Below are positions 10,701 to 51,391 of a DNA stretch of 64,000 bases, piece after piece (the first letter of the stretch is position 1; every line of letters begins with the position of its first letter). The stretch is from Psammoneis japonica (taxonomy: Eukaryota). The notes beneath the pieces were generated by a model that worked only from the letters and a program-made list of their open reading frames with translations, was not told where the DNA came from and made no database searches. The position numbers and the translations under genes were made by a program. The stretch covers positions 1-64,000 of the forward strand of contig QPGO01000204.1 of NCBI GenBank assembly GCA_008632985.1, given 5' to 3'.

Positions 10701-13700
10701 GTCGGGGACGTTAGATGCACTATCACTTGCCGCAGCCCTCCGGACCTGGAGTTCACCGGTGAAGTCAACAAGCCGGGCGCGAGCGAGTGAACTCTTGCTA
10801 TGAATCGCTGAGTGCAGTCCTAAATAGCCGAAATTTCGAATTATAAGCATTGATTTGCCACCTGTCAGCTCGCACACGCTCGCGCTATCATGGTCGGCTC
10901 TACGGACGCGCAGGAAGAAAATAATAGATGAGTAGCTCTGATACATGGACGAAAATAGGAAAACAATGTGCCTTACCGAGGGTACAACATGACCATCACG
11001 TGGTCGATAATCGGGCGCTCTCCAAGGCCAGCCACCAACCGAAATAGGGGAATCTGCACGCCTCGACTTCCGGGAACAGTAGGTACATCTGTACCAATGA
11101 CTTGCAACAGAGGTGCGACACCGAACGCAAAGGGCATCAACACCTGTCCGTGACGATTTGACATTCGCTCGATCTTCAGTGACAAGCGCTCGTAATCTGG
11201 ATTTCGTTGCCTTAGTCCCGGTATCCTGCTATCCTTTCCGTTCATGTACACTCCGATGTCGGCCACGTCCGAGAAAACTTTATGAACAATAAGAATAGCG
11301 TACAAGTTCGAAACACTGAGATTCGAAGGAATAGGGAAAACTCCACAACGGGTGCCAATCGTATTCTCTGACTCGGGCATTTGGCTGTGGTTTATGTTCT
11401 GTCCCGTCTTCCCCTCCTTTGTGTATGGCCACAGCGCAGCAGCACAGCGAGCTTCTACTTCTTCGTCTTCAACCACATCAAAGCTGAGAAGTTCCGTCAC
11501 TCTGCCACAACGTTGCAAGTTGGGAACGGGAGCAGCTCTTGGGTTACTGCCACTTGTAGGCATAGTCTCCACATGATAGACAGCGAGCGTACAAAAGAGC
11601 GGTTCCATCGTTTTGCCGACATTTGGAAATCTCACAGCGTTTGCATCAATCTGAACATAGCGATAGCTAGGAGGTCGATCCGACAAAAAGGGCAATGCTT
11701 CTGCCGTTGCTGTAGCGGCATGCAAGCGAGATAAAGGCAGATTTTCCTCGCGGAGCTCGGAAGGAGATGGAGAAAGACGAGTGTCTGGGTGGATATTGAA
11801 GGATGAATGATCAGCAGGAGGAAGCTGAAGTGGAAATCTCTCGCCTTTTCTGATAGTGCTTTGTGGTGACATCTGGTCGACTTGTTGGGAGTCGAGTTCG
11901 GTCATACAAGGCGTAATACCGTCGTTCAAGACGTTCCACCAGCCAAACCGTGTGTTGTCATCAAACAGTGGTTTCGGGTTCTGCCCACTGGTCTTTCGCG
12001 ATGATGCTTTTGAATCGCCAGGAGAATCCCCTGTGGCAATCGAACCTTGAGATTTGGTCCTTTTCTTTTTGGCGGGTTTGGGTGTGGAACGTTTCCCTTT
12101 CTCCGTCAAGGGTGTCTGTAACTCCACTGAATCCTTGCGCTGCGGCGACTTTGGATTGCCAAAAGCCCCGTTTCCTTGGTGACCCCCTATCAAACGGCGG
12201 CGAATCGGAGCCGTACGCGAGTTCCAGCTTTGGAGGTCGTCAGGGCTCAGTGCAGGATTGGGACATGCAATGGCCCCAAAGATATTAGGCACGGCATGCT
12301 TGGCAATAATATCCTGCGATTTCTTTCGTTCTGCGCTTCTTAGTTGATCCTCTTTGATTTCAAAAATTCCCAGGTCAGCTTCGACAGGTAGCGGCGAATC
12401 GTCACAAGCATAAAGGGGAACACGACCGTTGGTCAATTCCATATTAGAAAACGGGCGCCCCCCAGGAGTTGTCGGACTGAGTTGAGAGAGAATTGAGTGG
12501 GACTCTTCTTCTGTAATGCTCCCCCCTGGAGCATCACTTGTAACTCCTGATGGCCCGGAGTCTGAAAGAGACGCCAACGCAGCGTTCAGGTTGTCGTTAA
12601 TGCCAACTTGCTTCTTGAGTTCATCGTCCACAACTGATGAATCGTCTTCGTCATTCGCGTCATGAACAATCAGTGTGTGAGACGCGCCGCCAAAACTTCT
12701 CTCCGGAAAGCCGGAGGCTGGAGCATCCGAAGCTACTGGTACGAACGATCCACCTGCGGCAACCTTGTCCATCAGGTCATCATCTTCACCCCGAGCTAAT
12801 TGCGAAAACAAGTTCTTTTCAAAATTGGCGGTCGCAAAAGGCTTGTTGTCCATGTCTTCGCGAGCAACGTCCACTTCATCCGGGGAGTCTTCTTGTTTAG
12901 GAGCCACCATCGTAGGTGACTGTTCTCCAGGCATTCCTTCTCCTCTCGCCAGCATTCCGAAGAAGTTCTGCTCGTGTGTCTTGTCGTTCTCACTTCTGTG
13001 TTTCGATCGGTTTGAAATGGCTGGAGTCTTGGCCTCGTATCTATCGAAGCTGCCTTGAGCTTCATCTGACGTGGCTTGTCCTGCGGTTGTGGCCGGTGAT
13101 CCAAACTCCACGGTGGTTTCTCCGGCGGCATATCCACCTCTGGTATGCGAATCTGGTTGTTCCGCTCGATTTCGCAATTTCTGACGGGCCCGACGTTCAG
13201 CGCGAGCATCATCGCCCCACACTGGATGATAGGATGAAATGTAAGGATTCCCCCGCCAGTATTCGTCCGAGTTCTCATCGTCTGGATAAGTTCCAGGAAA
13301 CACCGATTGCCCAAATCCAAATGCTTCAATGGTACCAACGATATTTCTTAGTTCGGGTGGTAAACAATCCAGTGTCATGTTTACGGCATCAATTCCCTTG
13401 TCCTCCACAACTTTCGTCACAGCCTTGCGGGTCTCTCGCAACACTCGTGGTGGAATGACCGGACCAAAAAACAGTGGCCGAGGCATAAGAACCTCTTCTA
13501 TTTGCATAGGCGATGGCTTCGGCTTTGGCCCCACCACATTAAATACGTCGGGGCAAAAGGTGGCACTCTCTTCTTTCGTCAAAACAGACCGTGGTTTGTC
13601 TCCCGTAAGCGCCGCCGCGGCAGCTTCCAAATTGGAACTAGCTGCATCCGCGTGCGCATCTGTTGATTTAGACATGGCAAAAGTTCCTGTGTTCTCTACC

Positions 13701-13891
13701 GCTGCTGCTGCATCCGCAAACATGGCGGCTGACGAATCGCTTGCTTGCTGTTGCTGCAGCTGACGGGACTGGGAGGAAGTTCTCGTGCTTGTATCTACAA
13801 AACTCCCGCCGCTGGCCATAGCAGCAAACAGATTCATCTCACGCTGTCGCCGCGCGGCATCGTCTTCTTCGCCTGAAGGAGTGCCCGGCAT
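1768..13891 (-). CDS. Very large multi-exon DOCK-family (dedicator of cytokinesis) Rho-GEF
   Basis: Collinear minus-strand ORFs (972, 485, 509, 621, 538, 350, 237 aa and shorter) are separated by short GT-AG introns. A DHR-1/C2-like motif (NPKFMDEFKVKLPL, LLFSVYNI, LGCGFLPL) and DHR-2-like motifs (RVAWLRRLADFH..FAEEA, LGRFYRVWFHG, EFVYR) are present. TA and Tyr content are normal. Not every exon boundary was resolved. Confidence 0.82.
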
Positions 13892-15365
13892 GATATTACC
13901 GCCCTCGATGAAGTGCAGTAGCGGTCGTAGCGTTGCTTATATCAAGTTGGGTGTTTTCTACTAGTAGAGAGTCGTGCCGTGACCCGAGTTATGACTTTTG
14001 CCCATCGGCAATCGGCGCAGTTCAGCTCGATTACGATATCTCGAGTGTTCTTCGCGCTTCTCGCTTCCTCTTCTGCTTGTCGTCGTCTTCTTGTTGTTGC
14101 AGTTGTTCGGTTCTAGTTTGTTCTACCGTATGACAGCAGAGTGATGGCAGCTGCACATCAGATCATGGTGTGCTGTTGAGACGCGTCTTTCCAAACAGCA
14201 TTGAAACTAAATATACATGGATAAAAGACATGTTAATCAGCATATGAAAATTTTAATTAAATTGAGAATTAGTGTATATATATCTAATCATACTGTAATA
14301 TAAATATTACTTTATATAGTATTCATTGTATTTTTGCACTTACAGTGTTATTTTTTTTCGATTCCTTCACGTCATTCATTACAGCAGGTATGACAGAACT
14401 GCACTCATCACCCCCTTGCCTGTGGCACACTTTTCATCAGCCTTTCTAGCCAGCCACCTTGCTTGTTGCCAGCATTTAGAACAGAGAATTTCTAGAATGG
14501 GCATGATGTGTGGCTTCATGATGCCCTTGTCAACATCGCTGGTGTGAGAAAGAAGGTGGGCATGGCTCTGGCTCCCACCGTTTTCTCCCCAAACGTCCGC
14601 AACAGCACCGCCATTTTATTTTTGCTGGCTGATGGCAACCCCAATGTTGCATGTGTCTGGACATTGACACATGTTGCATTTGGCAATCTGTGCCAATGCA
14701 TTGTTCATTCATTGTGAATGACAGAGCAGCACATCGAGCGCGCCATCCAATGTGAAGAACCTGCACTCCTGGCCTGTTCCAGCTTCAGGTGCTCTGTGCG
14801 GGTTCGATTCCCATCATTTGGAAATTTGTGCATTTGACGCAATTAACTTTTTCCAAATCCGTTTTTTGCCAAATCGAAGGGCAAGTGTGCACTTCACATG
14901 CATTTTCGGGTGCACACTCACCTTTCGATTTTCGAAACGATCAAAATTGAAGGAGTCAATTGCGCCAAACTGCACAGAAAATCTGCCTCTCGCATGATGA
15001 AAAGCAGATCACCTGGAGCTGGAACAGGCCTCCTGCTGAATCATGAGACACACACTTTCCTGCCAGCAGATGTGTTTGACATTTCAAAGATTTCCATGAC
15101 TTGTCACACAAGGACAGTGGCAGCCACAAGCACAATGTGCTCGGCCAACAATCACAAATTTGACGTGGCGCTGCTAACACGACACCACATCCACAGCTCA
15201 CAATTAACTTCACATGTGTGTGCCTTGCTGTGCTTTGAAATTTTGAAAGTGGTGATTGATTGCAGCAAGAACAGCTGAAATGTTCAATTTTTTGCCTGTG
15301 GCTTTTTAAGCGCATGTGGTGAGTTGACAATGGGCACATTGCACTTGTTTCTCGCACATCAATTG

Positions 15366-15641
15366 TGACAGAAATTGAAGGCAAATGGCAAGAATTCAAA
15401 CAATGACTCCTTGCTGCTGTCTAAATGGCAGATGAGTCTCCGCTCAGAGACCATTGCAGGAGCCGAAAGACGTGTGAGTCGGTGTAATCGGGCTGCTGTT
15501 GTTGTCCTTGTGAGCCTTGTGGCTCGAAAGCAAACTACATCGCGCGTGAACGCGTGGAACTAAAGCACACAAAACTGTGCGCGGTAAACTAAACAGCGCG
15601 CGACACTTCGCGCGCACCCAAATCCTGTTCAAATCCTGTCA
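15366..15641 (-). repeat. 3' LTR (276 bp)
   Basis: Direct repeat of 22198-22473 with TG...CA termini and a 6-bp terminal inverted repeat. Confidence 0.95.
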
Positions 15642-15647
15642 CTCCCC
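15642..15647 (-). other. Polypurine tract (GGGGAG on the minus strand)
   Basis: ctcccc directly abuts the 3' LTR, which is the canonical PPT position. Confidence 0.75.
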
Positions 15648-18577
15648 AGTTTGCTTGAGGAGTCACAGAAACAGATTCGACTTCGGATGGAATGAAGTTC
15701 CAGAACATGAGGGGGCGGAGAAGGTCCCAGATTTGGGAGTGACCCCAATGCTTGCTGAGAATGTCAGCAGGGTTGCGGGAGCCTTCGATGAAGTGGAACT
15801 CAAGGCAACCAGAGGCAATTGCCTCACGCACACGGTGGAACGATGGTGCGGTGTGTCGCTTGTGTAACTTGGAGTGCGGGATGGTGGCACTGTCTACAAC
15901 CGACTTGTTGTCACCGAACATGCAACTGACATTACGGATCGGGACGCCAAGGCAGCGCAGGGTGATGCGCAGGTCGATAATCTGCTCAACACAAGTCCTT
16001 GCGGCAACAAATTCAGACCCGCAGGTTGCAGTCTCCATGGTGGCTTGCTTCTTAGAGAACCAATCAGCCGGGAATTTGTTGAGGAAGTGGAGCATTCCCA
16101 TGACAGAGCGTCCGGTGAGCATGCAATGGCACAAGTTTGCATCGACGTAGTGGGTGGCAGTGATGAACTTGCCAAGGGGCGGTGGAGCATCCTTTGGGAT
16201 CATCTCTTCTGCTTCGCCACACACGGAATGCATCCATTCACAGGCCGGAGCAGGGAGATCCGAACAGTCGGGCTCTTCCGTGCGAACGCGGAGAGCACCG
16301 TGTCGCATCTTGGAGAGGCACCCACAGATGCGTTTGGCACGATCCAAGTGGCCTTGACGGGGCGCAGCTCGGAAGCTGGAGAGTGACATGACGGCCGTGG
16401 CAATGTCAATTCGACCAAGGGACACTGCCCATTGGAGTGAACCAACAAGAGACTGGAACTTGTGAATGCCATCGGGTCCCAGCAGTTCAGAAGTGTCCAG
16501 TTCGGGGTGGTCACCCTTCTCCAGAGGTGACAGGGCATTGGTGGCAGGTTTCTCCCCAAACAGTCGGGCGCAGCTGTCGACCATGCGCTCGATGCACTTG
16601 CGCGGAGACAGGCACAAGGTTCCGTCGGGATCCCGGGAAAAGTCGCAACCCAGATGGAACTCAATGGGTCCCGCACCCTTGAGCTTGAACTTGTGCTTTT
16701 CCGTGAGAGTGTCGACGAAAGATTGAGGGTCCTTCATGGCAATGGCGAGGTCATCCACATAAACGGCAATGCATTCACAGTGGTCGCCGTTCCTGCGCAT
16801 CCAAATGTCGGGTTCGGCGTGGCAGGGGAAGAAGCCTTCAGCTCGCAGGCAGTCGGCGAAGCGCTCGTGCCAGCGGAGACCGGAGCTGCGCAGTCCATGC
16901 AGTGCCTTGTGGATGACAAGGATGTGTCCTTCGAGTTTGCCAAATTCGGGTCCGGCTGCAATGTAAAGCTTCTCCTTGGTGGTGGCTTCAAGGCAGGCAT
17001 TGCCAATGTCAGTGGCCCATGTCTCCAACTCGTTGAGTTCGGCCAGGAAAATCATCAGCCGAAGGCCATGGAGGGAGACTACTCCGGAGCAGACACTGTC
17101 GACAGGTACGTCCGTGAGGTGCCCGTCGGCTACGAGTCGTGCCTTGTGGCGACCGTCGTGTTTCACGTCGTGCACTGGGTGCACTCGGATCTTCTTGTGT
17201 CCCGCAGGAGGAGTGGAAGACTTGAAGGGCCCGCAGTCATGGAAGACTTCGCATTCGTCGAGTTGGTCCATCTCGAGATTAGTTGCGTCTCCCCACTTGC
17301 GGTTGCCGTTGCGTTCGTCCAGTGACATGGCGTGTTTGCAGTTCCGGGGAACTTTGCATCCGCACTTGTAGCGAGGTGCAGTGCGGAAGGAGCGAAGCTT
17401 GGCTTGGTTGGCCATGCGAAATGGCTTCTTTTGGCGCCTCGCGATGGTGCGGAACCGCTTCCAGCCATCCGTGTCGAGGAGTCCGTTCTCTCGTGCGTAG
17501 ATGGCACAGGTGACGGGGTCGTCCTTGGCAATGATGGCAAGAGGCTCGGATTGTGATCTCCCCACTTTCCCATTCAAGCATGATGTTGTAGCTTGAGCCT
17601 TTCCAGGTTGGGTCGTGAGGCTTCAGAGGTCCTTCGTGTGACACGATGCGTCGAAATTTCCAAACAGTGGTGTCTTCGTCTTCTTGCTCAATGTGATTCA
17701 TGATGTCATTGCAGGCAAGGACTTCCTCGCATTCGTCATTGTTGACAGAGCAGACGAACTTGGTGAGCTCGGGATTGCCGTTCACTTTCCATTCGTGGTC
17801 TTCGACGGCCTTGACGATGCGAGCTCTGTGGCGTTGTCCGTCCTCTTGTGGCTGCATGAGGAAGGTACGTCCAATGATGTCTTGTGGATCGAAAACTGGC
17901 ATCTTGGGTGTCCTGATCTCCCCATCAGGAGAATCGACGGGGTTGTCGTCATGGCGAGATTTGATGATGGTTCAGGTGGCTCCCCATCAGGAGGATCAAG
18001 ACGCAGGTTTCGAACGGCAGGATCGGTGGCAGCGGAGCGGACGTTGGACCGGCAGAGGATCTTCTGAGTCTCGTCAGATAGAATCTTGAAGGTCATCTGG
18101 TGGCCGACGTGCTCAGCAATGCCAACGAAGCGTCCACGCAACTCACGGGATTCGGACGGCCAATCGGAGTCATCGAGGTGGAAGCACACGGGTTCCCACC
18201 AGTGAAAGCGAAGCAATGGGCTGATGTCCGGGGTGGAGCCAGTGAGAGTCTCGAGGGGCGTGCGCCAGTGGAGACGTGGGGACGCTGTGTGGTTGAGTGT
18301 GAAGCACACGCACATGAGCGCCAGCAGCCATGTGTGGGCGGGCGAACCAAAACGATCCATGACGGTGTTCGCCATGCGCTTCACGGTCTGGTGTCGACGC
18401 TCGGCAAAGTTTTGGTGTTGCTGGTGAGGCTCACTTTGCCAGCTGGAGATGAAGAGGGCGCGTAGGATCCCGAGCACTTTGTTGCTGATCTCAACTTGAG
18501 CACGGTCGCCAATGAGTTTGGATGGGGCACCACGTTCACGGATCTGATCCTCGAGTGTGTTGACAAACTCTTTGTCC

Positions 18578-19009
18578 NNNNNNNNNNNNNNNNNNNNNNN
18601 NNNNNNNNNNNNNNNNNNNNNNNNNNNNNNNNNNNNNNNNNNNNNNNNNNNNNNNNNNNNNNNNNNNNNNNNNNNNNNNNNNNNNNNNNNNNNNNNNNNN
18701 NNNNNNNNNNNNNNNNNNNNNNNNNNNNNNNNNNNNNNNNNNNNNNNNNNNNNNNNNNNNNNNNNNNNNNNNNNNNNNNNNNNNNNNNNNNNNNNNNNNN
18801 NNNNNNNNNNNNNNNNNNNNNNNNNNNNNNNNNNNNNNNNNNNNNNNNNNNNNNNNNNNNNNNNNNNNNNNNNNNNNNNNNNNNNNNNNNNNNNNNNNNN
18901 NNNNNNNNNNNNNNNNNNNNNNNNNNNNNNNNNNNNNNNNNNNNNNNNNNNNNNNNNNNNNNNNNNNNNNNNNNNNNNNNNNNNNNNNNNNNNNNNNNNN
19001 NNNNNNNNN
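18578..19009. other. Assembly gap (N run) inside the integrase region
   Basis: 432 N characters. Confidence 1.
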
Positions 19010-22000
19010 GATGGTCTCGTTGACAACGACACGATGGCGGCAGTTGCCGCATTCGTCAAATGGGTTGGCAGTGGGATCGTCCTGAGGTCAGAGATCGCGT
19101 CGCACCACTGGTCGTCGTCAGTGACAGAGTGATCGAGGACGGAAGGGTCCCATGTGTCATCACCGGTGAGGATGACATGGGGCAGGGTGTCCCATTCGGC
19201 GTCAGTGTGAGGTCGCATGGCAACACAAGGCAGGCCGGCCTTGATGTCAATGGGGATGACACAGCCATCAGGAGTGGCAACACGTTGCAAGCCGTTGGGC
19301 ACCTTGACAGAGCGATCGTTGACATCCTGTTTGCACCATTCGAGCTGGCCGCAGGAATGGATGGTCTTGCCCTTGCCCGTGTGTGCGCACTGATGGAGGA
19401 TGGCGATGACGGGACCACGCTGGGTCTCAATGATGGCACCAGCGGTGACAACAGGGATGTCCACCAATTGATGATCGTCAATGCCCTGAACGTCGACTTG
19501 GCGAGAGGTGCGTGCAATGACGCAAACGTCGTCGCCAGCAATGCCGCCGTTGGCCCCACGATCGACTAGAGCGCCAGTGCGTGTGGAGCGATGAGCAGAG
19601 GCAGAGCAAATGACATTGTGGTTGTTGACGCGGCGGTGAGTGCGGCCGTTAAGTTCCATGTCATCTGCAGAAGCTGGCGGGGTAGAGGAAGCGGCGGATG
19701 GCCCCGGTCGACTGGCATTGGGGGCTTGGTTAGGAGACAACAGACGTTGCAGATCACCGGGTGGCAGTGGCTTGCGCTTGGTGAGGTGCGCCAGGATGGG
19801 ATTGTCCGAAGTGGCGTCCACATTTGGAGCGGAGTCACCAGAGTCAGCAGGAGTCGTGTTGGACAAGTTGACATCACCGTCACTCCCAAGGCGTTGGTCG
19901 TGAAGGTTGGCCGTAACAGACTCATGGCAGTTGCTGGCTCGCGGGTTGCGGGGAGGCGGACGAGAATGCTCAAGGATGATCGCCTTGGAGGAATCGGGCA
20001 ACGAATCCCAGATCCGTTGGTGGTCGGGAGGGAGACGTCTCCATTGGTCACCGGTGAGGCTGGGACCGCGGGTGCAGGCAGCATTGGCCTGAAGGACGTC
20101 AATGTCGCTGTCAATGTCGTAGAACACATCGTCGGACGGTTCCTCGGAGCAGACGTCGTGTGCGTGTGTGGCGCGTCGGGGAGCTCGAGGTGTCGTCTTG
20201 GGTTGAAACGCACTGTCGCACTGAGCTGCCGTGGAGAGGAGCAAGCCACAGTGTTGATCGCATGTGAGGCTCTTGCCACTCTGCGTGCGATGCTGATCAG
20301 CTTGGTTCTTGACAGCACGGAGTTCCTCGACAGGGTGCACGGCATTCTCGAGCATGACGCGCTTCTGTCCTTCAGAGAAGTGGTCACTGGCCGGGATGAG
20401 TGCCTCGCACTTGCGCAACTGATCTTGCCAATGAAGGATGAACCCGTGGGTCGGACCTTTCCAAGTGCCATCACCAAGACGTGCGGTGGTGAGGTACGTG
20501 AGCAGGGTGGAGGACTCGATGGATGCGCGGGTGGAGGCAAGCGCGCACTCAGACAAGGCGCGGCAGACGGTCTGTGCGTCAGAAGACCCCACATTTTCGC
20601 GAATGAGAGCCTTGCCCTTGTCGGTGAGAAGGATGCGTTCGAAGACGGCGAACATGCACTTTTGCTGTTCAGCAAAGAGCAGTTTGTCTTCGGGGCTGGT
20701 CGGTTTGTACGACGAGTCTAGAATGCACTCGACGTCTTGGGCACGGGCTTGTGCCACAAGTGAGGTGTGCCAAGTGTGCCACTGCTTGTCGGATTTGAGA
20801 GCCGTGAAAGCGGTGGGATCACGCTTGATGCCTCGCTTGAAGTCCCGCACCGGGTCGCGTGCCTTGGTCGGGTTGGTGACATGCGGAGGTGCAAGGGGTG
20901 AGCTGCCGATGGACACAGAAGACATGCAGTCGGGGCTGAGGCGGCAGGCAAGGAACTCGTCATGCGTGAACAAAGAGGAGTCATTGGCAACGTCAAGACC
21001 TTTGTGTGCTTTGACAATGTACAGACTGGCCAGTGCTGCTAACATGTTCTTATGACCACGGGGCAAAGGGATCACATTGGTGCCGTTGTCGCACTCAAGC
21101 GAGTCGATTTGGGACGGCATGAACGTGAACAGTTCCTGATGCGAGTCCGTGCCGTCTTGGGCCAAAGCCAAACGAAGAGGACTCCCAGCACCTTGGGCAA
21201 GCACGGTTCCAACAACGTGCTTGAAACCATCGGTTTGTTGCTGACGAGTGAGAACCATGGCAGACAAAAGTGGTGTCAGGACAATCAATTCTGGTTGGGA
21301 AGCGAAGGTAGACTCGAAACTTGGGTGAGAATGGACTTGACTTGAAATGGACTTGACTTGAAATCTTGAACTATCTTAAAATCAGAAGTCGCCGGGCTTT
21401 GCTGTCCCGTTCGTTGTCAAGTGCTAAACTTCCCATCCGGTCCGCAGAGTTGTGCCGGCACGTCCGAACCTGCAGCCAGCGGCACTTTGGGTTGCTCACG
21501 AGTGGAGCAGCAGGTTGCAAACCCCTGCAGGCAAGCTGACTGGAGGTGGACAAGACCCCCGAACCGTTCTCATTTTATGTCGGTTGGATTTCCCGATCAG
21601 GCTGGCCAGTTGACGCAGGCGTCAGGCGCTGTGGACGAACGAACAAACGCGGGAAAGCACCCTCGCCCCAACGCAGGCTGCAATCACGGCTGCTTGCTCT
21701 CACAGTCGTCCTCGTGGACCCAGTGGAACTGCAGAGCACCAGCAGTCCGGGGCAGATCAGGTGCAATGGACTCGGTGTGCTTGCAGAGTGGTGGCAAAAC
21801 CGCAGTCTGAAGAGTGGGTAAAGGTTCTTGGCCGTGAAGACATGTGTGTGCACATGTGTCTTCAGCGACTAAGGTCCTTGAACATGCAGGGTTCTTGACC
21901 GTTAACTGAGGAATGGGTGTGTCAAGGGATGTTGATCAAGGACAGACTTGGATGTGACCGTTGAATGCATGTCTTCAGCGATCAAAGGTGGTGTGATCAA

Positions 22001-22197
22001 TCCAGATGTCCAGCGGCAAGGAGACTTGACGGTGACGTTAACTTCCTGCCGATGCCCTGGTGTTGAATGCGCGTAGACTTGCCGATGCATGTAGGACACA
22101 CACGGAGGTCCACGCAGGATTGAAACAGCGTCGTTGGTAAATCAACGACGACGATGGCGGTTGCTCAATGGGTTGACAATGAGCAAGACTGTTAATC

Positions 22198-22473
22198 TGA
22201 CAGAAATTGAAGGCAAATGGCAAGAATTCAAACAACAACTCCTTGCTGCTGTCTAAATGGCAGATGAGTCTCCGCTCAGAGACCGCTGCAGGAGCCGAAA
22301 GACGTGCAAGTCGGTGTAATTGGGCTGCTGTCATCATCCTTGTGAGCCTTGTGGCTCGAAAGCAAACTACATCGCGCGTGAACGCGCGGAACCAAAGCAC
22401 ACAAAACTGTGCGCGGTAAACCAAACAGCGCGCGATGCTTCGCGCACACCCAAATCCTGTTCAAATCCTGTCA
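22198..22473 (-). repeat. 5' LTR (276 bp)
   Basis: Direct repeat of 15366-15641 with 17 mismatches by manual alignment, all transitions and no indels. Confidence 0.95.
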
Positions 22474-23428
22474 TTGCACCACACATGGGGGTTTGTGAGA
22501 TGTGATCTGCTGATTGACTGTTGCAGCTCTTGAGGGCAGCCAAAATGCCATTGCAAAAAGATGACCCCACAAAGTTGCTGTGGTGCTGAGGTGGTTTGTG
22601 CCGGTTTCCGGCTGCAGTGCACCACGCCAGCAAAAATTCATGCTGAAGAATCCAAGTCCCCATGCTTGTCAAGTGAGCATGGCTGCTGCTTTGTGCATCA
22701 TGTGCCCACCATTCTCAGTGACAGGGCTGGCAGCAAAAAAATGGTGTGATTTGGCAGAAAAAAAAACAGCCGCTGCTGAGTTCTCGCCTGTCACAGGCTG
22801 TGTGTTCTGCTCTGGTTGTGGAGAGCATTGGCATTGATGCCACAAGTTGTTGCAGTGCCAACTCTGGATGCTGGTGGAGAGGAATTTTCACTCTCTGAGA
22901 CCATGTCTGCTGCATTAATGCCTGGCAGCCTGGCAGTGTTGCATCCAACAGCAGAGGTGTCGGTAGAGCAGACAACCAAGCAACAAGGAAGCCTTCGGGA
23001 AGGCAGATAGAGCGATGAAGGAACCAGACAAGCGAACAGAACAAAGTATCTTTTGATGGCTCCGTTGAAGTTGCATTTCTTTATGTAATGATGACGTCAA
23101 TGCAATGGGGAGGGAAAGAACGCGAAAAAATCCAATGAGAACCCTGACACCTCCTCCATTCAAAAACGCGAAGTCCATCGCTACTTCAGCTTTCTCATCC
23201 CTCCGAACCAATCACAATTCTCAAAATAGCAAAACAAGAAACAAAGATTTTACCTGCCGATCGTTTTATTGGCTGTCACATCACATCACATCACATCACA
23301 AAAAGAGTATCGCGTTTACCGTGTTAGGCATTCTTTTCTTTAACAAGATCAACAGGTACAAGTACAGTAAAACAACCGATTGATTCGTGAACAAGAACAT
23401 CAGAACATTTTCCTCGACAGATCAAGAA

Positions 23429-34716: not shown

Positions 34717-36273
34717 TCACCGGCTATGATGATAGTCATACAGCGATCGCACGATACAAATTGCTCTGAGAGAGTCCCCGCCTAGCATACAAAAGCTGGA
34801 CGTTGACATGAGAATGGTCTTCTCAAAGGGTTGGAGATTGAGGCAAGAGAATACACAGTGTTCGACGACAGCTCCAGAGAGTACCATACTCCCGTACCAT
34901 AGAGGCAAAGATGCTTCGCCGATTCGCTCTTCCATTGGTCTACAGTGTGTTAGCCTGGGGAGTTTTTGACGGTCTCTCTTACCTGTCGCGGAAAGAGGCA
35001 TGCGGGAAATAACGACGAAGCGGATGACGGAATACAACCTTTCTTGAGAAGGTCCTAGCATCGTGCCTGTAGCATTGCAAGTAACTGGCCCGCGCTACAC
35101 AGCACACCTTTCATTGTTTCGGCTTCGCTGTTGAAATTGATATCCATTTCTTTGCAACATTTTGGAGTCAGCACGCAAGAAGCAATAACCGTTTTGTTGC
35201 TTTCTCTTCCTCTGGGTCGATAGATTCCGCAGCGACGGAGTGGGAGCTTTCCGTGTCTACAACTGCAGCCTCGATTTCCCATCCTCGCCATCAATGCGTC
35301 TGATGATATGAAGAAAATGATTTTCAGCATCGATGTACCGGTATGTAGAGCCACCTGTTTTATAATAACACCGGTACTGTGGCTCTTGATTCGAAGGTAG
35401 TTGGCCCACACCGCCTGCTCTCTCGTGTTTCGAAAAGAACTTGAGTCCGCTTAACTCCGGTTGATTCAAATAGCCTCTGAACTCATCAACTTGCAAACCG
35501 GACAAGACAACCTCCCGTATGCCCCTGTGTTCATAAACCGACTCGGACTCTATTTCAAGCCAAGAGCCTTTATTGGGTTTCCGACAACCTGCCCCTTTCG
35601 GCTTCCAGCGAGAGCTGTGTTTTCGGTTTGAAATACTTCTCCGCACGTTTGATAGACGCATGCTTCAGTCACACCGCATAGCTAGGTTGCAAGCGGTCTA
35701 GCTATCTCGGGAAGCGCATGGATGGCTTGCCCTTTGCCCGTGCCCATTTCTGTACGATGCGTTTCGGAATTGGCTCTCTTCCGAGGTCAATCACTTGTAA
35801 ACAAGGCAGTTCATTTTGGTGACTCATGTTGCTGTTGCTGACCGTATGGAAACTCATCATGCTCAATAGAGTTGCAGTGCAAAGTAAAATCACCAGTGAA
35901 GCCAATACATGCCATAAGCTTTCCACCAAGCTTCTGCGGGGTGCAACTTCTCGTGCAGCATGCACAGCATGGCAAATGTCGCCAAGACATCACTGAAGCG
36001 TGGATCAAATGATTTTGAACTCGCCAGCAGGACTGTTGAGGCAGATGTAATGGCGTGAGCTTTGTTCTTGTCAGCCAAGTGGTTTCGAAGAACTTGAATG
36101 GAGCACACGCATCCTTTGGATTTGCCAGCAGTTCCCGAGGCACACACAGTGTGAGACATTCGCTCCAAAGCAGAAATCAAATCGACAAGGTTCTTTTGGT
36201 TTTTTGTTTCATTGACAATCATCAGGTTCATAAACTGGATCCCACGCGCACGTGCGACGGATGAGCGAGGCAC
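34717..36273 (-). pseudogene. NRPS-like adenylation + thiolation domain gene (AASDH/ACSF4-like), fragmented
   Basis: Degenerate A3 motif (CASGTAGKSKG, canonical YTSGTTGKPKG), SFD, LGREPIP (canonical LGGEP), GYLNQPELS, YKTG, MPLSATGKRDR and carrier motif LGGDSL, spread over several frames with stops. Confidence 0.8.
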
Positions 36274-36879
36274 GAACGAAAAGAGCGTGACAGATTGTGG
36301 AGCTCAAAGCCAATGCCAGACATGTCAAAACAACCGCAACACGAAAACCTGTTGTGGTTGATGGTGGAACAGGTGAGGACACATTTTCTGCTGGCTCCAG
36401 AACACACAGAGCTGGAATTGAAACCGAAAACTGAAGAGACTCAACTCATGTGCGATGATCGCCTCTCTTGCTGGAAGCAAAAATCTCATGGGCCATGAGG
36501 CACAGGAAGAATTCACAGAAACGCACCCACAAGCAATGCATGAGATTGCAACTTTGATTGGTGGCAAATCTGTTCTTCATTGGGTCCATCACTGCAAATG
36601 TGCTGCGAAATTGAAACAAGACAATTTCTCTCATTTGAAGAAGATGAAACAGAAGATGGGCTCAAGCCTGCACGCAAAACATGTGGCTTCGTGCGGCCAT
36701 TGTTTGGCACAGCTTTCCACAGTTTAGATTCATCCACAAACCAGGCACTCATGGGACCAACATTGTTTTGTCATTGTGCATGTGAACAAGTGCCAACGCT
36801 GCTGCCCCCCCCCCCCCCCCCCTTCAGAAGCTGCCCGACTGTGGCTGACCCAGCTCTTGTTGAAATTCTTCTGCACTTG

Positions 36880-38420
36880 GCTTGAAAGGTCTCTCCCACT
36901 GTCACAGCAGAGAGCAGAAGCGGAGCAGATTTTGGTGGAAATGTTGAGGTCCAGTCTGACGTGCTGCATTGATGTGCATCATCCTTCCATCAGAGAAACT
37001 GATGGCCTGACATGAATGGCTTGAGAGAGAGCTCCTCATTCTTCATGTTTGTTTGAAAGAGACAAAAAATCAAGGAACAAGGAGGCAATTTCAGAAGCAC
37101 TGCCACAAAACACAGTTCAATCTCATTCTCCTTTTTGTCAACTCCTTCTGTTGACAGAGATGCTTTGAGGTGATTGCTGGCCTCTCTTCCTGCCAAGTCC
37201 ATTCAGATCATCTGCCCACCCACCCTCTCAATTTGGTGCTGTTGGCCCTGTGGTGGAGGCACTGAGGATTCTAGATTCCTGCCCCAGCTTGAGTGGGTGG
37301 TGCTGCACCAACACCAGCAAACCAAGAAGTGCTGAATTGCTGCCAACACAACAGTTGATTGGCCTGAGAGAGTGCAAGGGGACGAGCTGCCAAAGTGGCA
37401 GCAGCCACTGTCACAGTGGAGTGTGGAAGTGGGAAGCATTTTGGCAGAAACCTTGAGGTCAAGTTTGCCTGACATGCTGCGCTGATGTCTGTCCTTCTGT
37501 CATGGAAACTGACATCCTGACATGATTTTTTTAGAGTGAGCTCCTCATTCTTTGTTTGCTTCAGAATCAAAAAATTTGCAACATCTAAAAATTTGCAACA
37601 GATTCTGAATCCCTGCACAGTTGCTGCATGGCAATTCATGACATGACCTTTGTTGCTCTCTAAGAAGATCATCTTTGCTGCACAGGCAACATCCTCTTTG
37701 GTGCAGCGCAAGGTGATGGAGCTTTTTTTACTTTGATTGAGAAAAGAGAGGCGGCGCAGGAGAAATGACGAGAAGTTGTTGTTTTCAAAGGAAATTGCCT
37801 TCTTGTGACAGCAACTCATGTTGACGCATCGCAAGATTTCAACAAAAATGACCTTTTTGGACAATTGCGCCACCTTTCCTCGCAACAAACAAAACATCAC
37901 ATGGCTCTTTGTGATCATGACAATCTGATTGGTTTGTTGTTTTGTGTTGCTTGCAAACCCTGTGGTTGTTGAAACAGCAGCATTTGCTCATTTGAGGCAA
38001 AAAATGAAGCACTCTGAGACCTTTCAGGTGCTTTTGTCATGAAAAAATTAAAGCTGTTTGTCTTCATAAATTGGTTGGCGAAACTTGCAAAACTTTGCAT
38101 TTCAGCAGTTTGAGGGGGGCAAAGAATCAAGAAGCAAGGAGGCAATTTCAGGAGCATTGTGCCATGGAACACAGTTTGGCACACATCTCATGTGTTGTGC
38201 AAATGTGCACACAGCAGGGCAATGGATGGCATTGCCTGCAAAAGTCTTGGACACCCACCACCCGTGCTCCCACTCATGATTCTGGATTCCTTTCCTGCCT
38301 TGAGTGGGTGGTGTGCCAACCCAGTGTAAAAGCACTCACTGCCAACACCACAGTTGACCAGCCTGAGAGAGCACAAGGGGATGAGCCACCAAAGTGGCAG
38401 AGCAGCCACACAACTCCGTG
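36880..38420. repeat. Diverged, interleaved duplicated blocks
   Basis: 37267-37410 resembles 38278-38410, 37065-37118 resembles 38120-38178, and 36880-37050 resembles 37400-37560. Copies differ by TG<->CA swaps (gagagTGcaagggg vs gagagCAcaagggg; gagcTGcc vs gagcCAcc). Confidence 0.7.
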
Positions 38421-38449
38421 TGAATGGGCAATTTCACAGGCATGACATT

Positions 38450-39422
38450 TTTGCATGAGACATCCCTTGGGTGACAACCATGCCAGATTTTGGAGCTTGC
38501 AATGTCATGTTGCAGCAATGCTCCATCAGAGGTTCCCACATTTGCCCCAGATGAAGATGGTGCATCTGCTCCAACCTGGGCAAGTGCCAAAGCTCCATCC
38601 CCAAGGCATTGGAAGCTGCTGTTGGAATGCAGCACTGGAGGACTTGTGCACCAAGAAGACATGGGCTTGTTTCTGATTGATGTTGTGGTTCAGCATGCCC
38701 TTTTTTGTGAGAGACTGTGAGAGTCAGTCTTTGGTGAGATTGTTGATCTTGTGTTGCAAGCTCTCTTGGAAAACTTGAAGCAGGATCAGATCACTGGTTC
38801 TTGCCTCATGCTCTGGAGCAAGTGCTCTTCTTTTGTTGCCCACATGTGCTGCTGCTCATTCTTCTTGAAATGTCTGACTGGAGCAATTGACTTATGATCT
38901 TTGACTGTCAAGGCATGTTGCCACTTCACTTGGCAGCAGCAAAGCCCATGCCCAATGCCCTGCAGGCTCTCCATCAAAACAAGCACTTGAGCAACATGGG
39001 CTCTGCCCAAATGAGTCAACCTTTCTTTTTGTTTGGGACAAAAGTGGTGGAAAGCAAAAGCAATGTGATTTGTTTGTTTTGCTGAGTGGTCATCCTGGGC
39101 AGGCATTGGCTCATCCAGCAACATCTGGTGGTTGGCTGGTGACACCACACTGGTGTGCCATTACATTGTGTCATCTGTGAGAAGCAGCAAAAGACAGCTG
39201 TGGAAGGTTGTTGCAGATTCAGTTGCTGCTCTTGATCCAAAGACAACAAGAGTGTTCCCACACTTGCTGGCTGTGGCAGCAGCTCCCAAAAAGCCTCTTT
39301 TGGGCATCAAGAGAATGTCAAACAGCAGACTGGATGCAATGTTTGAGTTGGCTCATGTTCATCCAGAGCTGCTTCAGCCAGGAATGCGCCCAAGCAATTT
39401 TCTCCCCAAACCAATGCAGTGA
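38450..39422 (+). pseudogene. Decayed ankyrin-repeat-like gene
   Basis: DCQGMLPLHLAAAK ankyrin motif, plus a C-terminal DPKTTRVFPHLLAVAA...LDAMFELAHVHPELL segment resembling diatom ankyrin-like proteins. Multiple stops and frameshifts. Confidence 0.5.
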
Positions 39423-39999
39423 CTGAGAAGTGTCTGAGAAGGCTGTGCTCTCATGCTTGTCATGCACGCAGAGAAAGCATGAGCCATGGAGCACTGCACA
39501 CATGTGCACATCACCTGCCATGTGGCAGATTGCAGCAACCTGAATTTTTTTCTGAATGAACAAAGGTGCTGGCAATGGGAAGGGGAAAATTCAGCATTGG
39601 AGCACAAGCTTCCAACCCATGTGAGTCATTTGCATTTTTATGTTCACCTGGGGGGTGGGGGGTGGGGTGGGGTGGGAAAATGACCTGGGTCATGACCAAA
39701 GTGTTTCCATGTGCTCATGCCACAACAGCCCCAAATTTCTGCACAATTTGAGCCAGCGCAACTCAACACTCTGTCCCAACCTTGTTTCTTGCCATTGTGT
39801 GCCTGCTTTCCATCAATGTTTGTCTTGAGGAAGAAGAGTCCATCACCACAGCAGGCAACAAACTCAAGCATGCTCCAACAACCTCTTCAAAAAAACTCAA
39901 GCATGCTCCAACAATCTCTTCAAAAGAGCTTGATGCCATGATGGGCCAGCTGCCAAGCACACCCCACCCCCAACAATGATGTTCATGCCCACTTTTAAG

Positions 40000-44019: not shown

Positions 44020-44558
44020 GCTGGCCGGGTTCGGACAAATCGACCAGGAATTTGTGTGTATTCGTACTTAAGAAAATTCCACAGTGGACAAATCGACCCC
44101 ATGTTTTTGTGTTCTTAAAATCGATAGTGGACAAATCGACCACCACCATAAACTCCTGGTAGATTTGTCCACCCCATGTTTATGTGTTCTTAAAATCGAT
44201 AGTGGACAAATCGACCCCCTACATAAACTCCTGGTCAATTTGTCCACCCCATGTTTATGTGTTCTTAAAATCGATAGTGGACAAATCGACCCCCACCATA
44301 AACTCCTGGTAGATTTGTCCACCCCATGTTTATGTGTTCTTAAAATCGATAGTGGACAAATCGACCCCCTACATAAACTCCTGGTCAATTTGTCCACCCC
44401 ATGTTTATGTGTTCTTAAAATCGATAGTGGACAAATCGACCCCCACCATAAACTCCTGGTAGATTTGTCCACCCCATGTTTATGTGTTCTTAAAATCGAT
44501 AGTGGACAAATCGACCCCCACCATAAACTCCTGGTCAATTTGTCCGAGCCCGGCCGGC
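44020..44558. mobile_element. MITE/foldback-like element with ~34-bp TIRs and an internal 75-bp tandem array of palindromic units
   Basis: The left end gctggccgggttcggacaaatcgaccaggaattt matches the reverse complement of the right end at 30/34 positions. Units start at 44126, 44201, 44276, 44351, 44426 and 44501. Confidence 0.8.
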
Positions 44559-46452: not shown

Positions 46453-46685
46453 CAAATATCTGCTACTAGTACTATTACGTGTGATTGGTTGGAACTTGAT
46501 TGACTTTCTAATGTTTGTATTTTCGTATGCAGCCCATCCCGTGCCAAAGGATAAGATTTCACCATGGTACAGAGCCAGCGGCAGCACCCTTTGCTGTCGA
46601 CTGTGATATCTGTACTGGTGTGGCAGTGGCTTGTCAAAGCCTCGCTGGCATGGGTCCGTTGCCATTGTTCTTGCTTTAGGATATA

Positions 46686-48527
46686 TTACTCGACAAACTC
46701 CTGCAAGAGAGATACACCAATGAAGTTGCGTCCATGGCGGCTGATCCAATCTTGGTCAAAGCCAGAAGGAAACTTGCGTTCCGGCAACGACAAATAGTAC
46801 ATGAACATGGGGACAAAAACTCCGCAATCACATCCTAGAAAAATCGGTACGCAAAAGGAGATGAAGTGAGTTCCAAAGGTTCAATCCAAGTACAGCCATG
46901 CTTATTCGACTTAATTGACACGTACCGGTGTCCTGTTGGGGAGTATCATCAATGGGCGTCTCGATCAGTTTCCACTTGCGCGAATTAGGAAGCGACTTGC
47001 CCTTTTTCTTGTTCTTGTATTCGTCACGGAGGTAGCGCTTGAGTTTGGCCAAGATATAGGGGTAATGGTCACCAAGAGAGTCAAAGATTTGAATCTTCTC
47101 TTCCCGAACAAAGATGGCAGCCAAAATCCAATGGGTGGAGCGGACATGGATTGGAATCAAAACAATGTTCTTGTCCAAAATACCTGTTGTGCCAAAGCAA
47201 TATGTGAGAAGGAGAGACACGACAGGATTAAAACAGTACCAGCAAAGACACCACACTCACCGTCCTTCTTGGTCCAATTCTCAACCCTCTTGTAGTCGTA
47301 CGACGTGGTATTGGGGCAGGACTTGGAGAGCGACGAGTAGAAGTGTGTCGACATGATCTTGATGCCACCAGGGATCTTGACAGACTCATCACGCTTTGCC
47401 AAGAGTTTACCGAAGCTATCAATAATGACATCGTTGACCCACACCTCATCTTTCAAAGTCTGGAGCGCCCTGCCTGTCAAGAACGGTTTCTTGAGGATGT
47501 TGTTGGTGTACTGTGGGCCCATGCGTTCACGAAACTGTCTCACCCTCGTGGTATCCAGATCAGTGGACACAGCCTTACCAATGAGACTTTCATCATGATC
47601 GTGAGAGCCGGTGCTCTTAGCCATGCCCGTGGTGGCGGTAAGGGCGGTGGCGCCAGCATCATCCAAAGATAGCGAGGCAACAAAACTCTTTCCTGATAGA
47701 ATATCATTGAATTTCTGCTCCAAACCGTGAGCGACAACACTGTTGACTTGATTGAGCGCCTCCTCGACATTGTCAATCCGGTCGTTCAACATGCTAATGG
47801 CCGCGTTGGTAGCTTGCTGGGCTCGGAAAAAGTCTTGATGCTGATAGCCAATGGTAGCCAACTCTTCCCTCATGGCCTCCACACTGGCGTTGGTTTCTTT
47901 GAACTTGGCTTCATGTTAAATAACTTCGTTCATGAGCTGAGCCAATTGTTCTTGCAGATCGGCATTCATCAATGCGACTTTGTTCAAGTCGGTTGTGTCA
48001 TCGATATTGACATCTTCAATACCGAGCTGTTGACACATGGCCACGGTAGCAACACCCAACTCTGCAAAGGCTTTCAAGTCCCAATCCTGGAGGAACTTGC
48101 TTGCAGCGACACAGAATCGACCCATCACATGGTTGTTGAGGATTTTGTTGAACTGTTCCTTTTGCCTTTGAGCTTTAAGGTTGTTGAATGAATTCAATTT
48201 CTCAGCCATATCTGGGTCATTGACAAACTGGCGGAGGAGGTAGTTCTTGGCTTCCATGTGGTCCTCCTTGCTGTCTTTGGCCAATACACATTTGGGCCGA
48301 CCATGGTCACAAGACGAGACATCCTCCACCTTTCCGTAGTAGAGTCGGTTTGTCTCCTCACAGATTCCAAACAACTTTGGATTGGGGAAGTACTTCATTT
48401 GGAACTTTTGGCAGCGCGCACCGTTGACGTAAATGGTTGCGGTTGGAATTGCCCCATTTTCAAGGGCCTCTTCCACCTGCAGCTTCTTGACATCGCGTTC
48501 GGCGCGGGTAAGATCAATGCCCGTCAT
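46686..48527 (-). pseudogene. Ulp1/SENP (peptidase C48) SUMO protease gene with an in-frame TAA at 47916-47918
   Basis: Motifs WVNDVIID, STHFYSSL, IPIHVRSTHW (His), FDSL (Asp) and spliced QQDTGCDCGVF (Cys), with two GT-AG introns. The upstream coiled-coil ORF is in frame but separated by one stop. Confidence 0.8.
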
Positions 48528-48709
48528 GGTTGGCGTGGATGTTTGGATGGATTCGTTTGACGTTGCTTACGTTTGGGAATGGAATGATGCTGCTGCTATC
48601 CTGGATCGATCCGTCGTTGTTTGATGATCTCATCTACATACCGGCACCGTCTGCTACTTAACTGCCGGTGTTCATGCTGATTTTATGTAACCTATTGCCG
48701 GCACTGCTA

Positions 48710-49466
48710 TCACGGAACCAATTTCAAAGCATCTTCCATGTCTTGGAACTCCCAACTGGCAGTGCTGTCACCACCACCATCTCCAACCCATTTGCCTTGG
48801 CTGAAAAAGGTGTCGGATCGTAGCGACACAAAGGGTTCAATCTCCAACGCGTCTTTTGCATTCCTGACATCTTCATGAATTGCAGCAACTAAATCAGGAA
48901 AGGACGGAAACTTTTGCTCATTTCGAAGAAATCCAATGAGAGACAATTTCATCGTTTCGTTGTAAAAGTCCGACATGACTTGGCTTTCTTCGAGCATTAG
49001 ATGAGCTTCCACAATCTTTTCCTTGTTTTTCCTGTCCCTCAAAAGTGGGAGAGCATCCCACATTGACAACAGCTCGAAGCTTGGTGTTGCGCAGCTTGTT
49101 TGTACTTTTGCTTGGGTCTTCGACAAGTGCCCACCCAAAGCACACACCCGTGTCTACACGGTCGAGTGCACTCGCAAAACGTGACGAGGGCAAGTTGGCC
49201 GTAGGGAATCCAAGTTTCTTTCCTCCTCGGCCGCATCCAGAATCAACGGGTCCTCGAAGCCGAACTGTTTCCTTGAGCGGTTGAGGGGGAGATGTTTCTT
49301 GCTCAGCAGCACAGGTGTCAGACGCGAGAAAGGAGACGACTCTCGAGCTACATCGTTGAACACACGTTGTGGGTGACACAACAACAAACGCTGATGTTGT
49401 TCTCTGGCTCAAGAACTGGGCACAGAACAACATGAGCAGCCAAAAGAAGCTGTGCAGCACATGCAT
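48710..49466 (-). pseudogene. RFK: Riboflavin kinase with a signal peptide and SAF plastid-targeting motif; frameshifted and Tyr>Cys mutated
   Basis: Motifs GRGGKKLGFPTANL, TGVCFGWA, VNVGCSPTF, IVEAHL, DFYNE and FLRNEQKF. A +1 A in a run at ~49028 shifts the frame. Confidence 0.88.
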
Positions 49467-49929
49467 GTTGAAGGATCAGTCCATGTGGTTGCCTTTTTGC
49501 GCTGCCTCGGTCCCTTGTATCCCGCCAGAATCGAAGCTCGCGTGTGCGCGTGTGCCGGCAGCTTCGTGCTTCGGTGCGTCTCTTCCAACGTGTTCAGACC
49601 TCCCAAGCCGGGAGTGCTCCAAGCAGATGACACCTCAGACAGCACAGGAGGGCGAGCAGCAGCTCGCACCATCGAGCAGCAATGCAGCATTTAATCAAAA
49701 GCCTTTCACAAAAACACAACTGACCAAATTATGAGCTGTCTGCTTGTGGCCAGGCCAAAATCTGGTGAGTGCGACTGCTGGAGACAACTCGCAGCGTGGG
49801 AAATCCACGCCACCTGGTGCACCGGAGGAGTCACCAAGTTCTCAACAATCAATCTTGCACCAACTTAGGCATTGTAACATTCTTTGTGGCACGTAACAAC
49901 TGTTGTTGAGCTCTGACAACACCGGTGCC

Positions 49930-51150: not shown

Positions 51151-51391
51151 AAGCAGGCCCAGCTCCATGCTCTGGCAGATGGCCCTCTGCTGTCAGAGAG
51201 AGAAGATTTGGGGCTGCGGTGGTGCGACTGGGGCCACTGTGTGTTTTGACGATGTTGTGTTCAACACAAAGAGTCGACTCTCTAAAACAACTGCCTGTTC
51301 ACAAGCACTCATGCACACAGCTCCACCTGCCCATTTGCAAGCGCCGAGAGTCAGTCGTCGTCGTTGGGATGTCGATCGACGCGGTGTTTGG

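Follow-up and report, generated by a model that had tools for sequence, protein, structure and literature searches.

Four domains of the stretch of DNA analysed here (positions 1 to 64,000 of contig QPGO01000204.1, assembly GCA_008632985.1; the 64,000 nucleotides as a whole are called the window) have lost most of their TA dinucleotides, while the genes between them are of ordinary composition. The second of these domains contains a Ty1/Copia-type long terminal repeat (LTR) retrotransposon on which the direction, the timing and the context of the change can be read. The best explanation, and in our judgement a likely one, is that TpA was turned into TpG or CpA on chromosomal DNA once the element had integrated, within bounded domains and beside a slower decay of CpG, as in Bigelowiella natans; an enzyme and a role in defence are what we infer beyond this.

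TA depletion in four bounded domains

We compared the dinucleotide composition of the four TA-poor domains (D1 to D4) with that of normal DNA elsewhere in the window (31,303 nt), the TA density of which was used to calculate the expected TA counts. In 1-kb windows, the observed/expected ratio (o/e) of TA was 0.0-0.25 inside 1-1200, 14400-23000, 36000-39900 and from about 49000 or 50700 to 63600, and 0.4-0.9 elsewhere. D1 (1-1200, truncated by the start of the window) contains a single TA when 46.8 are expected (o/e 0.01), D2 (14400-23000) contains 63 instead of 318.9 (o/e 0.15, on 8169 called bases), D3 (36000-39900) contains 14 instead of 152.3 (o/e 0.05) and D4, as counted from 50700 to 63600, contains 56 instead of 503.6 (o/e 0.07). 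The Poisson probability of the TA deficit was at most 2e-19 in each of the four. TA is already low from near 49000, so that D4 extends from 49000 to 63600 with a TA-normal island inside. These counts confirmed what an earlier reading made from the letters alone (the sequence-only reading) had claimed, namely that TA is nearly gone from four domains while the neighbouring genes are normal (o/e 0.01-0.15 versus 0.60 in normal DNA).

The o/e of TG/CA rose to 1.49-1.95 in the domains, versus 1.12 in normal DNA, while the sum of TA, CG, TG and CA per kb was 234-263 across the domains and 239.5 in normal DNA. The mass balance per kb showed a loss of 33.9 TA and 18.0 CG against a gain of 55.9 TG and CA. 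AA/TT survived, as the sequence-only reading had stated (o/e 1.13-1.27 versus 1.13), and AT was at 0.69-0.93 versus 0.96. That reading has to be corrected on one point, since CpG is also depleted in some domains (CG o/e of 0.32 in D1, 0.82 in D2, 0.21 in D3 and 0.64 in D4). Because this loss of CpG is uneven across D1-D4, it is separable from the loss of TA, and two distinct decay processes therefore feed TG and CA. The GC content was 0.55 in D2, and 0.55-0.60 in the interior of the element, versus 0.49 in normal DNA.

The left border of D2 is abrupt, at about 14395, where it adjoins an unmutated AT-rich block (14200-14395) full of ATAT and TATA, and its right border lies at about 23050. Two genes flank D2 with their 5' ends turned towards the element (the ORFs end at 13936 on the minus strand and begin at 23384 on the plus strand); D2 fills the interval between them, and both borders are a few hundred bases upstream of these genes. 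The border of D1 adjoins an unmutated low-complexity stretch, rich in CTAG and AG and dense in TA (1330-1570). Since the TA-dense sequences at 14200-14395 and 1330-1570 are unmutated, the domain borders are sharp to within about 50 bp.

The frequency of TAA and TAG together, per kb and per strand, decreased from 16.8 in normal DNA to 0.8-5.1 in the domains, while that of TGA was unchanged. The near absence of TAA and TAG leaves long open frames on both strands, so that the length of an ORF is no evidence for a gene in these domains. Two overlapping frames of 383 aa were found at 19569-20718, on both strands, inside TA-poor DNA. For annotation, this means that the loss of TAA and TAG gives long spurious ORFs in all six frames and that dead elements look intact.

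The Copia-type element in D2

From its sequence, we assign the minus strand of 15366-22473 to a 7.1-kb LTR retrotransposon of the Ty1/Copia type. The 5' LTR (22198-22473) and the 3' LTR (15366-15641), both on the minus strand, are direct repeats of 276 nt with TG...CA ends, and are 94% identical to each other. The frame of the reverse transcriptase (RT) and RNase H (15589-17622, minus strand) is open over 677 aa from stop to stop and matches the Pfam domain RVT_2 with an E value of 8.7e-26. We found 1914 database homologues of this ORF, the best of them about 68% identical. The upstream polyprotein frame, expected to hold gag, protease and part of the integrase, is a single frame of 1197 aa (17782-21375, minus strand), counting as X the residues of an assembly gap of 432 N (18578-19009) that interrupts it in the integrase region. 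Pfam gave no match in this upstream frame, where the integrase is partly lost in the gap.

A tblastn search with 32 long Copia polyproteins gave homology over 15622-18576 and 19013-19245, in order from 19245 down to 15622, and gave matches in no part of the window other than D2. The traits of Ty1/Copia elements found here are thus the RVT_2 domain, the collinearity with homologous polyproteins and the direct LTRs with TG...CA ends. A purine-rich run just upstream of the 3' LTR, in the orientation of the element, was read from the alignment as a putative polypurine tract. No target-site duplication of about 5 bp was found, the five bases outside each LTR being mismatched; the mutation process itself may have changed these bases.

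D2 is wider than the element. On the left side it takes in a foldback repeat, resembling a miniature inverted-repeat transposable element, and about 300 bp of DNA of single-copy depth. The inverted repeat (14771-15030, no strand assigned) has arms at 14771-14796 and 15005-15030 that are 92% identical, is self-complementary over 14827-14976, and is TA-depleted. The summed contig depth was 13,407-33,792 over 14690-15029, versus about 57 in the single-copy flank. The possibility that the flanks are degenerate LTRs of the same family was rejected, as their local alignment score was no better than that of shuffled sequences.

Direction of the change

The RT frame is open, yet conserved tyrosine codons in it have turned into cysteine or histidine codons. 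The frame contains 5 Tyr, 29 Cys and 32 His; the sequence-only reading had counted 5 Tyr and about 28 Cys in 662 aa. Of 29 Tyr codons conserved in 119 homologues, 20 show the change in the window (17 to Cys and 3 to His), 5 still encode Tyr, and the other 4 are read as Phe (3) or Trp (1). All seven motifs that had been quoted are present, and each differs in the announced way from the consensus of 59 homologues: DIGNACLE instead of DIGNAYLE, KALHGL instead of KALYGL, HCECIAVYVDD instead of YEY.AVYVDD, ATCGSEF instead of ATYGSEF, LRCLG instead of LRYLG, KHWGHSQ instead of KHWGY.Q and HTAPSFH instead of HT.LSFH. In the MAFFT alignment with these 59 homologues, the window differed at 66 of 442 conserved columns. 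A single change from TA to TG or CA accounts for 21 of these columns, a CpG change for 5 and another transition for 2. The remaining columns require a transversion (16) or at least two changes (22), and many of them lie within the first 33 residues, where the alignment is poor.

We then compared the RT ORF, codon by codon, with the closest relative found (locus L011, 70% nucleotide identity over 1812 nt). Where L011 has TA, the window reads TG at 24 places, CA at 20 and TA at 8. Where L011 has TG or CA, the window reads TA 0 times and 1 time, respectively, which makes 44 changes in the forward direction versus 1 in the reverse direction. The same asymmetry was observed with all 11 relatives compared. 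With the mass balance and the 20 of 29 tyrosine codons, this bore out the claim that the change is directional, from TpA to TpG or CpA.

Depletion of TA is no trait of the family, since the TA o/e of the RT region was 0.57-1.12 in all 40 related metagenome loci scored (of 47; the other 7 were short fragments and were left unscored).

Other copies of the element were compared over 13500-18570 by means of contigs from public sequencing runs of the same organism, and the site counts that follow are drawn from 40 of the 109 differences. Among the 34 listed sites that lie in 14837-18510, 8 have TA in the other copies where the window has TG or CA, 3 are swaps between TG and CA, and 3 go in the reverse direction (TA in the window and TG or CA in the other copies); 12 oppose CpG to TpG or CpA, and there are 4 other transitions and 1 transversion besides. 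In run X1, 91 of 106 differing places were transitions. The run contigs that are identical to the flank comprised 4 pieces with 0 differences.

For CpG, the comparison of the RT ORF with L011 showed 32 places where CG of the relative is TG in the window and 6 where it is CA, the reverse directions being found 14 and 5 times, respectively; this asymmetry on the sense strand may come from codon constraints in either lineage. One homologue, P0065 (among 120 listed), contains 2.3% Tyr, 2.45% Cys and 5.0% His, versus medians of 4.3, 1.2 and 3.7, and may represent a copy on another contig with partial hypermutation. At codon phases 1 and 2, silent outcomes seemed to predominate (14:0); this was rejected as an artefact of inferring ancestors from distant relatives at synonymous sites.

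Timing of the change and its substrate

At integration, a single template gives rise to both LTRs of an element. Those of the element in D2 differ at 17 positions, all of them transitions, which include 5 swaps between TG and CA, 2 sites with TA in one LTR and CA in the other, 3 with CG versus TG or CA, and 1 unclassified adjacent double. TA is retained in both LTRs at 4 places and CG at 17. Counted as site-copies, at least 12 of 22 TA sites (at least 55%) have changed, versus 3 of 40 CpG sites, and there were 2 changes in 276 nt outside the dinucleotides derived from TA or CpG. TA thus changed several-fold faster than CpG decayed and some hundred-fold faster than other sites changed.

A swap between TG and CA could also arise from a CpG struck twice in opposite ways, but this is unlikely to have happened five times because only 3 of the 40 CpG site-copies have changed, whereas five such swaps are expected from TA because at least 12 of its 22 site-copies have changed. 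Since the LTRs differ by these swaps, at least the changes that distinguish them arose on chromosomal DNA after integration, on either strand. This timing excludes editing of the RNA intermediate as the source of the changes that distinguish the LTRs.

The skew of TG minus CA in 300-nt bins had a variance of 1.53 in depleted DNA versus 1.48 in normal DNA, and showed no strand-coordinated clusters. Within the LTRs the swaps look coordinated (4 TG and 1 CA in the left LTR, 6 CA and 1 TG in the right LTR), in numbers too small for a conclusion.

Sequence context and strand

Tyr changed to Cys 17 times and to His 3 times (binomial P of about 0.003). This excess was first a candidate for a transcription-strand bias, which was rejected, as the outcomes on the sense strand of the RT ORF were 24 TG and 20 CA overall and context accounts for 8 of the cases. 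A Tyr codon is TAY, so that its sense adenine is followed by a pyrimidine, and the excess of Cys is explained by this context. At 8 Tyr sites the adenine of the opposite strand precedes a G, and in all 8 the change fell on the adenine that precedes C or T (P of about 0.008). The preferred site is 5'-T-A-Y on either strand or, equally, 5'-R-T-A if the thymine is the target. The sequence-only reading had proposed that adenines on both DNA strands are hit; both strands are indeed affected about equally, as shown by the 24 and 20 outcomes and by the swaps in the LTRs, while adenine as the target is not separable from thymine.

The density of the trinucleotides ATA/TAT was reduced to 0.03 of that of normal DNA and the density of TAA/TTA to 0.26, and TTAA and CTAA/TTAG were enriched three- to fourfold among the surviving TA. 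When survivors are compared with the host baseline, only two features of the context are robust: ATA/TAT is lost almost entirely, and TTAA and CTAA/TTAG survive relatively well. A ranking of contexts from this baseline (3' T > C > G > A) was dropped, because the gains in products of TAC-type sites exceeded the losses, which indicates that the DNA of the host is a poor stand-in for the ancestral composition of the element.

Gene fragments and the other domains

The C-terminal half of a GH47 alpha-mannosidase lies in pieces at 49917-51246 on the plus strand, with Pfam matches to positions 205-267 and 363-455 of 455 only. It shows ETLKHLHLL, NKHVFNAGAHP, DSFYECMLK and DPVCREWGW, where human ER mannosidase I has Tyr at most of these positions, and the conserved motif NTEAHP reads NAGAHP. 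Conserved Tyr is read as Cys or His in this fragment, which is probably a pseudogene lying within the hypermutated domain. A riboflavin kinase gene (48710-49475, minus strand) is read in two overlapping frames, which match positions 2-70 and 67-123 of the Flavokinase profile. Its 5' part (48918-49475) is in TA-poor DNA and has GVC for the conserved GVY, while its 3' part keeps its Tyr (DFYNE).

We tested 118 ORFs of at least 90 aa from D1, the flanks and gag region of D2, D3 and D4 against Pfam. The sole matches were the GH47 piece and a weak one to MCM_OB, in an ORF that runs past the right edge of D3. For the D4 ORFs at 55297-56481 (minus strand) and 57616-58632 (plus strand), 0 homologues were found, in the case of the first among 1.84 billion representatives.

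Comparison with known systems

The sequence-only reading held that no eukaryotic pathway with this signature had been described. That claim is out of date: a preprint by Mettrop et al. (bioRxiv 10.64898/2026.01.13.699255, 2026) reports hypermutation confined to TpA in the integrated viral DNA of Bigelowiella natans. In mutation-accumulation lines of this alga, two integrated viral regions received 231 of the 302 new single-nucleotide mutations, at a rate of about 6e-7 per site per generation, and the mutations in these regions were found in some lines only (10.64898/2026.01.13.699255). Changes of A to G or T to C made up 20 of 20 mutations in the virophage region and 210 of 211 in the nucleocytoplasmic large DNA virus (NCLDV) region, all of the GC-biased ones at TpA (10.64898/2026.01.13.699255). 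The same preprint describes, in the genome of B. natans, 124 clusters poor in TpA and rich in CpA and TpG, and 324 TpA-poor coding sequences, enriched in reverse transcriptase and DDE endonuclease domains; its authors propose an ADAT2-like adenine deaminase with a role in defence, and cite reports of DNA activity for the ADAT2 of amphioxus and trypanosomes (10.64898/2026.01.13.699255).

The window resembles B. natans in that the changes are almost exclusively A:T to G:C transitions at TpA, yielding TpG or CpA according to the strand, in that they are confined to regions with a footprint of low TpA and high CpA and TpG, and in their association with reverse-transcriptase sequences. It differs in its target, here an LTR retrotransposon together with the repeats and gene fragments beside it, whereas the targets in B. 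natans are giant-virus and virophage inserts. The depletion is also near saturation in the window (o/e 0.01-0.15, versus a Rho of 0.45 for the NCLDV region), the T-A-Y context and the post-integration timing can be read, and CpG decays alongside. In B. natans, on the other hand, the events were seen de novo in the lines, whereas here they are known from their footprint.

The genes of B. natans have on average 8 introns (PMC13746701, Table 1). Those of the window are long single ORFs: SHMT is a single ORF of 467 aa that includes the complete Pfam domain, and many ORFs reach 500-990 aa. This scarcity of introns, set against the tabulated number, suggests that the host is probably other than B. 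natans. The footprint is of the same kind as the TpA hypermutation of B. natans, probably in a new lineage and on a new class of target. Our literature searches gave no report of a TpA signature in diatoms, and the words 'dinucleotide', 'RIP' and 'degenerat' were not found in the portion of Maumus 2009 (PMC2806351) that was available.

If the host is truly not B. natans, it would be a second, independent lineage with hypermutation at TpA only, and the phenomenon would pass from the curiosity of a single species to a candidate for a general pathway of defence or of heterochromatin mutagenesis in marine algae. Relative to the accessible text of the preprint, the new elements are the saturation of an LTR retrotransposon, the proof of post-integration change from LTR divergence, a T-A-Y context pointing to TadA/ADAT-like chemistry, the sharp borders on the promoter side and the extension of the changes into gene fragments. 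If there is a natural deaminase of adenine in chromosomal DNA, it would be of interest to the field of base editing.

The nearest functional analogue is repeat-induced point mutation (RIP) of Neurospora and other fungi, which works in the opposite direction (CpA to TpA). As in the window, RIP consists of regional, saturating transitions of transposons after integration, with spill-over into adjacent DNA, and leaves dead elements. It changes C to T mainly at CpA, makes TpA, lowers the GC content and creates stop codons, while the process seen here destroys TpA, raises the GC content and removes TAA and TAG. Deamination of 5-methylcytosine at CpG leads to the same end point, TpG or CpA, and is present in the same domains, but cannot remove TpA and was much slower in the LTR pair (3 of 40 site-copies versus at least 12 of 22). 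The statement that the signature is neither RIP nor CpG decay was thus upheld, TpA being lost while GC goes up (0.55 in D2 versus 0.49).

TadA and ADAT enzymes, and the adenine base editors evolved from TadA, convert A to I, which is read as a change of A to G, require a 5' T or U and have a liking for a following C. The substrate context of TadA in tRNA is U-A-C, in the anticodon loop, and an early evolved TadA prefers YAC. The natural enzymes act on tRNA, whereas the substrate would here be chromosomal DNA. APOBEC3 and AID are likewise agents of hypermutation by host-inflicted deamination of mobile or viral DNA, but they change C to U on single-stranded DNA, in other contexts, with one-strand G to A footprints and mostly before integration. 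Editing of the ADAR type and of the APOBEC type fails on timing, strand or base.

Proposed explanation and alternatives

We propose that, once the element had integrated, its TpA sites were converted to TpG or CpA far above the background rate, by a process that would act on both strands of chromosomal DNA, in bounded domains that stop just short of the promoters of the neighbouring genes. A slower and separate decay of CpG to TpG or CpA, the usual mark of cytosine methylation, would have gone on alongside. The same process would have shaped D1, D3 and D4, and would have reached the gene fragments at the edge of one domain. Chemically, a TadA/ADAT-like deaminase brought to silenced chromatin could convert the adenine of 5'-TA to hypoxanthine; we put enzymatic adenine deamination at T-A-Y by such an enzyme slightly below an even chance. 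The biological role could be to inactivate mobile or foreign DNA, and such a defence is plausible. A still broader proposal, in which a chromatin-guided natural DNA adenine deaminase acting at T-A-Y would be a widespread and possibly ancient defence of algae of the SAR lineage (Stramenopiles, Alveolata and Rhizaria), saturating silenced transposons in bounded domains and removing TAA, TAG and tyrosines, is speculative and on balance doubtful.

Several points weigh against this explanation. Pieces of host-type genes (GH47 and riboflavin kinase) are mutated too, and the flank of about 300 bp with single-copy depth is TA-poor. Since host gene pieces and unique flanking DNA are affected, the targeting is regional, following the region and not the class of sequence, and is not strictly directed at foreign DNA. 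For D1, D3 and most of D4, no origin from a transposon or from foreign DNA was found, ORFs of at least 90 aa there being without Pfam match and two long ORFs of D4 without homologue. TA is its own reverse complement, so that adenine and thymine are indistinguishable as the damaged base. The sequencing runs come from one sample, which may be the source of the assembly itself, and so give no independent proof against an artefact. The pattern could also be the by-product of a base modification or repair pathway specific to a type of chromatin.

The alternative that survives best, though we consider it unlikely, is that thymine is the target: a dioxygenase of the TET/JBP type would oxidise T at TpA to 5-hydroxymethyluracil (5hmU) or 5-formyluracil, which would mispair with G and lead to a change of T to C on either strand. 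All of our counts fit T to C at 5'-RTA as well as A to G at 5'-TAY, and the regional confinement and the co-occurring decay of CpG fit a chromatin-directed modification. In dinoflagellates, 5hmU is found preferentially at TpA. The T-A-Y context, on the other side, matches the substrates of TadA, which is only a lead, and the authors of the B. natans preprint favour adenine deamination.

It is very unlikely that an error-prone or GC-biased repair, or gene conversion, in heterochromatin changed A:T to G:C with no dedicated mutator. The raised GC content of the element interior (0.55-0.60 versus 0.49) and the restriction of the changes to silent domains would agree with it, but the changes are specific for one dinucleotide, AA/TT and AT are not depleted, and ATA/TAT is at 0.03 of its normal density. 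We know of no GC-biased conversion with such a context dependence.

Hyperediting of the retrotransposon transcript from A to I by an ADAR-like enzyme, fixed by reverse transcription and integration, is highly improbable. The element is a retroelement, and ADARs typically change A to G with a preference for a 5' U, according to the discussion in the preprint. Against this, the LTRs differ by the 5 swaps and the 2 TA/CA sites, and the two strands are struck about equally (24 versus 20). DNA that is not retroelement-derived (the gene fragments, the foldback repeat and the unique flank) is affected as well, and the presence of the same pattern in GH47 and riboflavin kinase also points away from editing of an RNA intermediate. 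ADARs prefer a 3' G, the opposite of the 3' pyrimidine preference observed here.

Least probable of all is an artefact, through miscalling of a modified base at TpA in heterochromatin, which the sequence-only reading had considered, or through faulty assembly: the runs may be from the sample of the assembly and their platform is not on record, but their contigs match the flank exactly, the same data contain other copies of the family with TA retained at these sites, miscalls on two strands would give mixed calls including CG instead of clean TG or CA, and B. natans shows the same changes de novo in Illumina-sequenced lines, as reported in the preprint.

Other observations in the window

To the left of D4, an intermediate zone at 46500-49000 had a TA o/e of 0.38-0.54, a CG o/e of 0.69-0.79 and a TG+CA o/e of 1.27-1.40. 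It holds two ORFs without Pfam match (47157-47915 and 47916-48566, both on the minus strand), and may be partly mutated DNA or merely biased coding sequence. The TA-normal island within D4 (50141-50699) is a 416-bp tandem duplication (50141-50286 and 50557-50699, 97% identical) with a TA-rich core between the repeat copies, and the copies, which differ at few positions, show TA versus TG at one of them. This island may have been inserted or duplicated later, or may consist of protected DNA. An array of tandem repeats with a period of 75 bp (offsets of 75, 150, 225 and 300, 94-98% identical) was found at 44093-44545 in DNA of normal TA content, between a SAICAR synthetase fragment and the next ORF.

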